From a virus, in IMG/VR virus record IMGVR_UViG_3300029922_000840: 22,923 nt of DNA. One strand, given 5' to 3'. Positions within the stretch are counted from its first letter, which is position 1. The number at the start of each line of letters is the position of its first letter. The position numbers and the translations under genes were made by a program. The notes beneath the pieces were generated by a model, which was not told where the DNA came from, did no database searches, and saw only the letters and a program-made list of their open reading frames with translations. Below are positions 19,196 through 20,182 of this stretch, piece after piece.

Positions 19196-20182
19196 TTACT
19201 TACCAGCCTTTGCAGCCTTCTTGTTGGCCAGTGAAGCCTTCAAAGCGGCCATCAGGTCAACCGTGACCACTGCGGTGGCGTCCTGCTTCTTGACTTCAGG
19301 AGCGGCCACGCCAGCCTTCTTGGCGGTCAGCAGGTTGCGGAAGCGAATCGAGAACTTGTCGTTGTAGTCCGAGGAGACGAACTTGTCAGACATCGCCTCG
19401 CCAAGCTGCTTCGCCAGAGTCTTCTCGTCCTCGCTCAGGACAACCGGGGCAACCTTGTCGAAGATGCGGATTTCGTGTTCGAAGTACACGAAGTGAACCG
19501 CCAGACCAACCTTCAAAGGGCGGATGATGACAGTCTGTTCACGCCCCCTCTGAGCGGTCTGAGCAACAGCCACCTGACCCGTGCTCACCAGCATCTCGCG
19601 GAAGACGGCGAGGGCGCGTTCGACAATCGAACCACCATCGGCTCCGAGGTACTCGGCAGCTTCGAAGTACAGGGGGTCAACTTCCGTCGCCGGAACCAGC
19701 TTCTCAACGGTCATGACCTTGTCGGCCAGAACCATGCAGCCCTTCTTCTCGTCGTCAGTGATGACGAAAAACTTGCCGTCGTCATCCTTCATGCCCTTCA
19801 GGGACTGGGCACGCTCGACAATCGCCTCGCACGCCTCACACTTCATCGCACCCTGCTTAAGCTGTCCGTACACGGGAGCCTCTTCAGAGGCTTCGTGGTT
19901 GCACTGGTGAATCATGTTGGTCTTGAACTTCTCGGAGTCCTCAATGACCTTGTAGGTCTTGACGGGGACGGTCAGGCCATTCGCGCCCTCGATGACGACC
20001 AGCTTACCCGACCAAGTCGAACGGCCACAGCCAACCTTCTCGGGGGCGGCGGCGTTCACATCGGCGAACTCAACCTTCGGGTGGAGAAGGTTGTTCAACT
20101 TGCTGGAGAGGTCGGCGACACTAGGCTTCGCGGGAGCCGCGACGGGGGTTTCGGTCTTCGATGTGTTCTTTGCCTTTGCCAT
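19196..20182 (-). CDS. ku: Ku-like DNA end-binding protein (bacterial/phage Ku homologue), 328 aa, with a Lys/Ala-rich N-terminal extension and a Lys-rich C-terminal tail.
   Basis: Compared with mycobacterial Ku from memory: RSTWSGKLVVIEGANGLTVPVKTYKV ~ RAIWTGSIAFGLVNVPVKVYSA; CEACEAIVERAQSLKGMKDDDGKFFVITDDE ~ CEACGEVVDYRDLARAYESGDGQMVAITDDD; LVPATEVDPLYFEAAEYLGAD ~ FVPAADVDPMMFDRSYFLEPD; C-terminal DLMAALKASL...KKAAKAGK. SD AAGGAGA. Confidence 0.85.
   Translation of the reverse strand: MAKAKNTSKTETPVAAPAKPSVADLSSKLNNLLHPKVEFADVNAAAPEKVGCGRSTWSGKLVVIEGANGLTVPVKTYKVIEDSEKFKTNMIHQCNHEASEEAPVYGQLKQGAMKCEACEAIVERAQSLKGMKDDDGKFFVITDDEKKGCMVLADKVMTVEKLVPATEVDPLYFEAAEYLGADGGSIVERALAVFREMLVSTGQVAVAQTAQRGREQTVIIRPLKVGLAVHFVYFEHEIRIFDKVAPVVLSEDEKTLAKQLGEAMSDKFVSSDYNDKFSIRFRNLLTAKKAGVAAPEVKKQDATAVVTVDLMAALKASLANKKAAKAGK

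Follow-up and report, generated by a model that had tools for sequence, protein, structure and literature searches.

A phage Ku homolog and a linked minimal ATP-dependent DNA ligase as a candidate two-component end-joining module

Introduction

The closest described counterparts of the system considered here are the Ku–LigD pairs of Mycobacterium tuberculosis and Bacillus subtilis, the Ku proteins of mycobacteriophages Omega and Corndog, the Gam protein of phage Mu, and the minimal ATP-dependent ligases of the Chlorella virus and Lig E type. A minimal C-terminal region of Ku is needed for the interaction with LigD in B. subtilis (PMC4889933), and this region is enough to stimulate ligation in M. 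tuberculosis (PMC9638933). Omega and Corndog reportedly use the LigD of their host and circularize at short cos ends (Pitcher et al. 2006, as cited in PMC12848934). Mu Gam protects DNA ends from RecBCD (PMC8987985) and, according to Bhattacharyya 2018 as cited in PMC8136500, can promote end joining with a ligase. What non-homologous end joining (NHEJ) does during phage infection was called poorly understood in 2026 (PMC12848934), and most documented cases of end joining by phages concern mycobacteriophages that rely on host LigD. Here we analyze a Ku gene and an ATP-dependent DNA ligase gene on one 22,923-nt IMG/VR record, IMGVR_UViG_3300029922_000840, which we call the window; all coordinates below are window positions unless a contig is named. 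The window contains tail-fiber PHROGs and rIIB as phage markers and is phage DNA, and its source is a large soil or peat phage.

As judged from sequence, the pair in the window resembles bacterial Ku–LigD in having a homodimer-type Ku core with the minimal C-terminal motif and an ATP-dependent ligase nearest to LigD. The genes are also linked, and in one phage sub-lineage they are operonic, as ku and ligD often are. Unlike bacterial Ku–LigD, however, the phage pair is virus-encoded, its ligase consists of ligase domains only, without polymerase or phosphoesterase, and scores far under the LigD cutoffs, its Ku carries a 53-amino-acid (aa) N-terminal arm and just a 10-aa basic C-terminal tail, and motif I of the ligase reads KxNG in most family members. 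With Omega and Corndog the window phage shares a phage-encoded Ku of the bacterial type, but its lineage has a ligase of its own, linked to Ku. With Mu Gam it shares a phage end binder of the Ku fold, but Gam works with the host NAD-dependent ligase, is much shorter and lacks the Ku C-terminal motif, whereas the window phage supplies its own ligase. To our knowledge, minimal ligases of the Chlorella virus and Lig E type do not pair with Ku. The window ligase resembles these enzymes (PDB 4d05, 8u6x) in its nucleotidyltransferase (NTase) plus OB architecture, the absence of a DNA-binding domain and its size, but it matches them more weakly (1e-5 to 9e-9) than it matches archaeal and eukaryotic (Lig1- and LigIV-type) and LigD ligases.

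On balance, we think that this phage probably encodes its own two-component NHEJ module. What we observe are the family features of both proteins, the linkage of their genes in members of a diverged phage lineage, their operonic arrangement in one sub-lineage, and similarity between the promoter-like sequences of the two genes. The literature that we searched, which included two jumbo-phage reviews and the 2026 paper on NHEJ in phages and covered subscription journals only in small part, contained no account of a phage whose Ku is linked to a ligase of that phage.

A divergent phage Ku

The initial annotation had called the 328-aa protein a Ku, and family searches bear this out (Table 1). The protein matches Pfam Ku PF02735 over residues 69-245 (1.7e-20, 74.2 bits vs a cutoff of 25) and PHROG 4873, "Ku-like DNA end binding" (2.4e-29), and the profile of its clade matches solved bacterial Ku structures in the PDB at 2.8e-43; no match to the Gam family appeared among its Pfam or PHROG results. 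Its score against NCBIfam TIGR02772 Ku_bact (4.3e-39, 134.5 bits) lies under the equivalog cutoff of 150, which argues for a divergent Ku clade and against a typical cellular ortholog. Among the deposited phage genomes searched, the Ku matches were Omega and its relatives, at 26-28% identity over residues ~50-296.

This Ku has an N-terminal extension. The start ATG lies at 20182, with a Shine-Dalgarno sequence (AAGGAG) ~10 nt upstream, and the extension is not a start-codon artifact because all clade members carry it. A 50-aa AKAK-rich tail had been described here; the extension is real and specific to the clade, but it measures 53 aa (10 Ala, 7 Lys, 5 Pro), has a net charge of +2, and has MAKAK only in its first five residues. 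Conservation within it is confined to the MAK(A)K start, a helix of the [VI]A(D/E)[LI]SS(K/Q)L type, and a P-x-EK motif directly ahead of the core in which the Lys is invariant. In the AlphaFold2 (AF2) model the extension is mostly disordered, with a single helix at residues 22-33. Bacterial Kus have no counterpart of residues 1-53 in the alignment, the arm is missing from L009 and L011, viral Kus that do not belong to the clade, and the mycobacteriophage alignments start at residues 47-54 of the window Ku and so do not include it. When the profile was searched exhaustively, ~45 of the 52 best-ranked representatives (clusters at 50% identity; E <= 1e-56, mostly 300-350 aa) matched from the arm onward; matches further down the ranking begin at profile positions 52-60, equivalent to residues 2-5 of ordinary bacterial Kus. 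By this comparison the arm marks a distinct Ku clade of ~45 clusters at 50% identity.

At the other end of the protein, D309, L314 and L318 are invariant across the aligned phage and bacterial Kus, and the minimal C-terminal motif (DLMAAL-type) is kept in 11 of 13 clade sequences. The "usual basic C-terminal tail" of the initial annotation does exist, but with only 10 residues it is shorter than in the aligned bacterial Kus. The AF2 model, which is of a monomer, has a confident core and a low-confidence bridge region, as expected for a monomer.

The bridge region has two further features. It contains H92-x-C94...C115-x-x-C118 (window 19829-19909, minus strand; residues 92-118), of which H92, C115 and C118 reach 90% conservation or more within the phage Ku clade, and H92/C94/C115/C118 are a possible zinc-binding site. 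The clade also has an insertion of ~15-25 residues in this region compared with the aligned bacterial Kus.

A minimal ligase of the DNA type

For the 261-aa protein, the initial annotation had proposed a DNA_ligase_A_M domain followed by an OB domain. Pfam calls the first (PF01068, 1.9e-9, 38 bits vs a cutoff of 26.2), with a match that covers only the C-terminal half of the NTase domain, and does not call an OB family in this protein. The AF2 model (pLDDT 95.9, pTM 0.86), however, places beta-strands across residues 171-240, Foldseek aligns it to whole NTase-OB ligases in the PDB with TM up to 0.77, and motif VI is in place, all of which point to a predicted C-terminal OB domain with motif VI. 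Residues K29, E78, D88, E145, G146, K168, R241 and D243 are invariant in all members of a 46-member family alignment. Searching the PDB with the single ligase sequence gave nothing significant, but searching with the family profile gave 43 sequences, every one a DNA ligase, and the Foldseek top 50 consists exclusively of DNA ligases (LigIV, archaeal, LigIII, the M. tuberculosis LigD domain, Lig1 and T4).

The position of the gene could nevertheless suggest another activity. It heads a minus-strand block whose last gene encodes a protein with an HNH endonuclease and a PF09414 RNA ligase domain, several members of the ligase family have a weak precomputed PF09414 match, and contigs L012, L016, L017, L021 and L061 also have the HNH-RNA-ligase gene close to the ligase. 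On these grounds the 261-aa enzyme might ligate or repair RNA in partnership with the HNH-RNA-ligase protein and be unrelated to Ku. Against this stand the predicted OB domain and motif VI (R-x-D-K), which is invariant or nearly so in the 46 members and is characteristic of DNA ligases and of capping enzymes, as well as the absence of any RNA ligase from the PDB profile matches and from the Foldseek top 50. We consider the RNA-repair explanation highly improbable and reject an RNA-ligase identity on the PDB profile search, Foldseek, the NTase + OB architecture and motif VI, so that the enzyme keeps its initial assignment as DNA-type.

All 46 members match TIGR02779 "NHEJ_ligase_lig" (best 5.6e-32) and TIGR02776 LigD, and these two families collect more members and better E-values than any other NCBIfam family, but all the scores lie far under the cutoffs. 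The window ligase scores 32.3 bits against TIGR02776 (cutoff 373.2) and 36.5 against TIGR02779 (cutoff 227.75); its nearest NCBIfam families are LigC/LigD-type, and all of these scores are under the respective cutoffs. No DNA-binding, polymerase or phosphoesterase domain was found in the 261-aa ligase. By these scores the LigD ligase domain is the nearest cellular family, and the enzyme itself is not a LigD member.

In 38 of the 46 members, Asn replaces the usual Asp of motif I (KxNG vs KxDG). This substitution could mean that the ligase has been inactivated, and the Ku score under the equivalog cutoff could mean that Ku is a recently captured bacterial gene without phage function, in which case one or both genes would be decayed passengers. 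The 38 members that keep the Asn, however, are only 41-59% identical to the window ligase, and the other catalytic residues are invariant, which argues for selection for ligase function. Ku, for its part, is not a recent capture because its identity to bacterial Kus does not exceed ~33% and it belongs to a clade of ~45 clusters with a conserved arm of its own. We therefore give the passenger explanation very little credence. The Ku-adjacent (operon-type) ligases described below carry the motif I Asp, KxDG, and KxNG as a marker of Ku-linked ligases was rejected for this reason.

Two relatives extend the ligase at its N-terminus. P0166 (371 aa), a distant family member, has a WGR domain (PF05406) fused to the N-terminus of the ligase, and the homolog Tunturi_5 gp61 (L154 5617-6759, 380 aa) is ~120 aa longer at its N-terminus. 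WGR domains occur in poly(ADP-ribose) polymerases (PARPs), and the WGR fusion would fit a break-repair role for the ligase family.

Linkage of the two genes

The ligase gene lies 15.3 kb from Ku in the window, in agreement with the ~15 kb of the initial annotation. To see how the two genes are arranged elsewhere, we scanned IMG/VR with a 13-sequence Ku alignment and inspected 10-kb neighborhoods on the 13 distinct contigs that carry the Ku clade; on 11 of them the ligase follows Ku on the same strand, no more than 10 kb downstream. We also anchored the comparison on the ligase, using contigs that carry ligase relatives and tblastn with the window proteins. Of the 15 loci in the close ligase clade (36-53% identity), 10 have an upstream Ku on the same strand, 3 more reach the contig edge before Ku could appear, and 1 probably has Ku just past the flank; L021 has none within 10 kb.

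The distance between the genes varies widely. It is 14.4 kb in the 40-kb contig Ga0642625_06942 and 8.7 kb in L006, both from metagenomic lineages, and 8.6, 8.0, 5.6, 3.1 and 2.4 kb elsewhere. In six contigs (L018, L019, L020, L022, L025 and L050) the gap shrinks to 5-10 nt, and in these same six the stop codon of Ku overlaps the Shine-Dalgarno sequence of the ligase (TAAGGAGCCGCAGATG). This arrangement is that of a two-gene Ku-ligase operon in the six contigs. Since rIIB is not nearby in the operon-type contigs, Ku and the ligase remain together there in another genetic setting.

An IMG/VR Ku scan with another alignment, A2, and overly narrow search patterns returned 3 distant loci only, and a metagenome scan with A2 returned mostly ordinary bacterial Kus, with 77 of 80 loci lacking any other window-protein match. 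Neither Ku nor this ligase was found in the huge phage genomes LR756500, LR756501 and LR756503, which share the vault-like gene described below.

Promoter-like elements

Within the window, exact matches to TAGACA-N18-TATACT occur only twice, upstream of Ku and upstream of the ligase, and these two elements have further bases in common (Table 1). With up to 2 mismatches allowed, the window holds 4 matches vs 0.73 expected. A third copy, with a shorter spacer, precedes another transcription unit, and an element exclusive to Ku and the ligase was rejected on this account. The three copies are all intergenic and on the coding strand, with the consensus TAGACAAA-(c/t)c..GGT....CCCG(G)TATACT, and they head the blocks that run from Ku to the vault-like gene, from the 241-aa gene onward, and from the ligase to the HNH-RNA-ligase gene. 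In contigs L015 and L017, similar promoter-like sequences precede both Ku and the ligase. The element is probably a phage promoter class.

Table 1. Positions of the genes, protein segments and promoter-like elements in the window; positions given as residues refer to the encoded protein.
Feature	Position	Strand	Description and matches
Ku gene	19196-20182	-	328 aa; Pfam, PHROG, NCBIfam and PDB matches; alignments; AF2 model
Ku N-terminal arm	residues 1-53		clade-specific
Ku core	residues ~54-290		includes bridge region with H92/C94...C115-x-x-C118
Ku minimal C-terminal motif	residues 309-318		DLMAALKASL, conserved
Ku C-terminal tail	residues 319-328		ANKKAAKAGK, short Lys/Ala tail, 10 aa
ATP-dependent DNA ligase gene	3073-3858	-	minimal ligase, 261 aa; NTase + OB
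Ligase motif I	K29-F-N-G-E-R34		
Ligase motif III	D76-x-E78		
Ligase motif IIIa	D88		
Ligase motif IV	E145-G146...K150		
Ligase motif V	K166-x-K168		
Ligase motif VI	R241-x-D243-K244		
Promoter-like element, Ku	20236-20207	-	TAGACAAATCTGGTACTTCCCCGGTATACT; within Ku upstream region 20183-20236
Promoter-like element, ligase	4001-4030	-	TAGACAAACCCCCGGTACTCCCCGTATACT; ~143 nt upstream of ligase ATG
Promoter-like element, third copy	14472-14500	-	TAGACAAACCCGGTGAGTCCCGGTATACT; 17-nt spacer; before 241-aa and A1S_2505-family genes
HNH endonuclease + RNA ligase	147-1202	-	351 aa; PF01844, 1.3e-6; PF09414, 1.9e-28; PHROG 24030, 3.7e-112
Tail-fiber protein	4107-7796	+	1229 aa; collagen triple-helix repeats; weak CBM_5_12 match
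627-aa protein	7827-9710	+	weak discoidin (F5/8 type C) match; follows 1229-aa fiber gene
Tail-fiber-like gene	11110-12822	-	570 aa
A1S_2505-family phage non-structural protein	13128-13805	-	NCBIfam NF049995, 1.4e-35; PHROG 2072, 4.2e-38
Major vault protein homolog	14830-17289	-	819 aa; Pfam MVP_shoulder, 3.5e-26; Vault_3, 1e-9
PTH2-like peptidyl-tRNA hydrolase	17420-17848	-	PF01981, 1.1e-5
ATP-grasp protein, R2K clade	17947-18855	-	PF14243, 6e-18
rIIB homolog	20661-21893	-	PHROG 609, 2.3e-56

Neighboring genes and source of the DNA

Some of the neighbors travel with the pair. The A1S_2505-family gene recurs beside the ligase in relatives, with the order Ku-ligase-A1S_2505 gene in the operon type, and its product, for which no PDB relative was found, could be a third component of the module; L057 12167-12544 is a further example of the family. 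The ATP-grasp and PTH2-like genes adjoin each other between Ku and the vault-like gene, and are kept between Ku and the ligase in relatives. When tblastn was run on LR756500 and LR756501, the HNH-RNA-ligase gene was found in LR756500 only (42% identity). With rIIB, the PTH2-like gene and the HNH-RNA ligase, the neighborhood is at most suggestive of repair or counter-defence.

The major vault protein (MVP) homolog is a separate finding and may be more unusual than the Ku. It matches solved MVP chains over residues 434-760 (2.9e-19), its gene is 56% conserved in the related phage contigs L006 and L012, and it matches at 40% over 99% of its length in 462-kb and 735-kb huge phages (LR756500, LR756501, LR756503). 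The phrase "major vault protein" occurred in none of the papers returned by a literature search in which it was combined with phage terms.

A megablast search with the entire window gave no match among 50,697 phage records, so it has no close deposited relative; 22 metagenomic contigs from JGI samples carry an identical Ku protein with unchanged gene order. Relatives of the window sit on contigs of 100-463 kb, which places it in a lineage of large or jumbo phages. A receptor-binding cassette, formed by the two plus-strand genes and the 570-aa gene of Table 1, is inserted between the Ku block and the ligase block; it varies among the contigs with identical Ku, and L003 has an 860-aa gene in place of the 570-aa gene of the window. 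Several long related contigs (L006, L008, L013, L014 and L018) break off 1-2 kb or less from Ku or from the ligase, including the 310-kb L008, whose Ku lies ~1 kb from the contig end. These contig ends may reflect chance or an assembly break at variable DNA, or they may reflect nearby genome termini.

Discussion

The initial annotation had suggested that Ku and the ligase could be a self-contained end-joining pair, and this suggestion is supported by the linkage in 11 of 13 contigs, the six operon-type contigs, two further lineages and the common promoter-like element. In the module that we favor, a Ku homodimer ring would load on free double-stranded phage DNA ends, either the termini of the linear genome after injection or breaks that host nucleases introduce, and would shield these ends from exonucleases and bridge them. 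Ku would then recruit or stimulate the phage 261-aa ligase, through its minimal C-terminal motif and possibly also through the clade-specific N-terminal arm, and the ligase would seal the junction, making the phage independent of host LigD. Our inferences concern the contact between the two proteins, when they are expressed, what they act on, the nature of the genome ends, and the outcome, whether genome circularization, concatemer formation, break repair or end protection.

A number of observations weigh against a dedicated end-joining module. In the window itself the two genes are 15.3 kb apart in separate transcription units, and the promoter-like element they share points to a common promoter class and not to exclusive co-regulation, because a third unit also has it. 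No end-processing partner (polymerase, primase, phosphoesterase or nuclease) was found among the window open reading frames with Pfam, PHROGs and NCBIfam. Two Ku contigs, L063 and L064, have no ligase within 10 kb; Ku is nearby in none of the 28 loci of the distant ligase clade (26-33% identity), and these 28, L021 and Tunturi_5 are ligase relatives without a nearby Ku. All linked examples may come from one phage lineage with the conserved order rIIB-Ku-...-ligase, in which case the linkage could in part be inherited synteny. The motif I Asn, which may affect catalysis, counts here as well. Finally, jumbo phages commonly or sporadically have ATP-dependent ligases among their replication components (PMC7824862), and sealing replication nicks may be an additional or even the actual task of the window ligase.

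Several of these observations also fit an explanation in which the two proteins have independent jobs. The ligase would be a general replication and repair nick sealer, acting on Okazaki fragments or recombination intermediates, Ku would be a Gam- or gp2-like protector that blocks RecBCD or AddAB, and the linkage would be inherited early-region gene order. The sporadic replication ligases of jumbo phages, the ligase relatives without Ku (including Tunturi_5 gp61), the distance between the genes in the window, and the possible restriction of all linked cases to one lineage are consistent with such a division. So are the lack of a second visible DNA ligase in the 23-kb window and the primary role of Mu Gam, a Ku relative, in protecting DNA from RecBCD (PMC8987985). 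Against independent jobs stand six contigs with a 5-10-nt gap between Ku and ligase in a different gene context, and a ligase downstream of Ku in 11 of the 13 Ku-anchored contigs. This clade also keeps the minimal C-terminus through which Ku interacts with its ligase (PMC4889933), and the nearest cellular family of the enzyme is the LigD ligase domain and not a replicative ligase. We regard independent jobs, the main alternative, as possible but unlikely. The two explanations are in any case not mutually exclusive; Mu Gam, besides protecting DNA ends, is reported to promote their joining together with a ligase of the host (Bhattacharyya 2018, as cited in PMC8136500).

In a more specific version of the end-joining module, which we put forward as doubtful, the pair would serve a lineage of large soil or peat phages specifically for counter-defence and genome maintenance, and the N-terminal arm would tether the ligase. 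With its MAKAK start, short amphipathic helix and P-x-EK motif, the arm would replace the contact between the C-terminal extension of bacterial Ku and the polymerase domain of LigD. The pair would then reseal restriction or CRISPR breaks in the phage genome or circularize the incoming genome, and if this were true, at 589 aa in total it would be the smallest natural stand-alone NHEJ system.

The compact pair (328 + 261 aa) is a possible portable end-joining tool for bacteria that lack NHEJ, and the N-terminal arm and the KxNG motif I offer testable structure-function variants of two well-studied families. If our favored reading of a phage-encoded end-joining module is true, the pair would be a tractable two-protein system for the roles of end joining in phages, among them circularization, protection from RecBCD-type nucleases and repair of restriction or CRISPR cuts, and it would mean that viruses can be self-sufficient for end joining.

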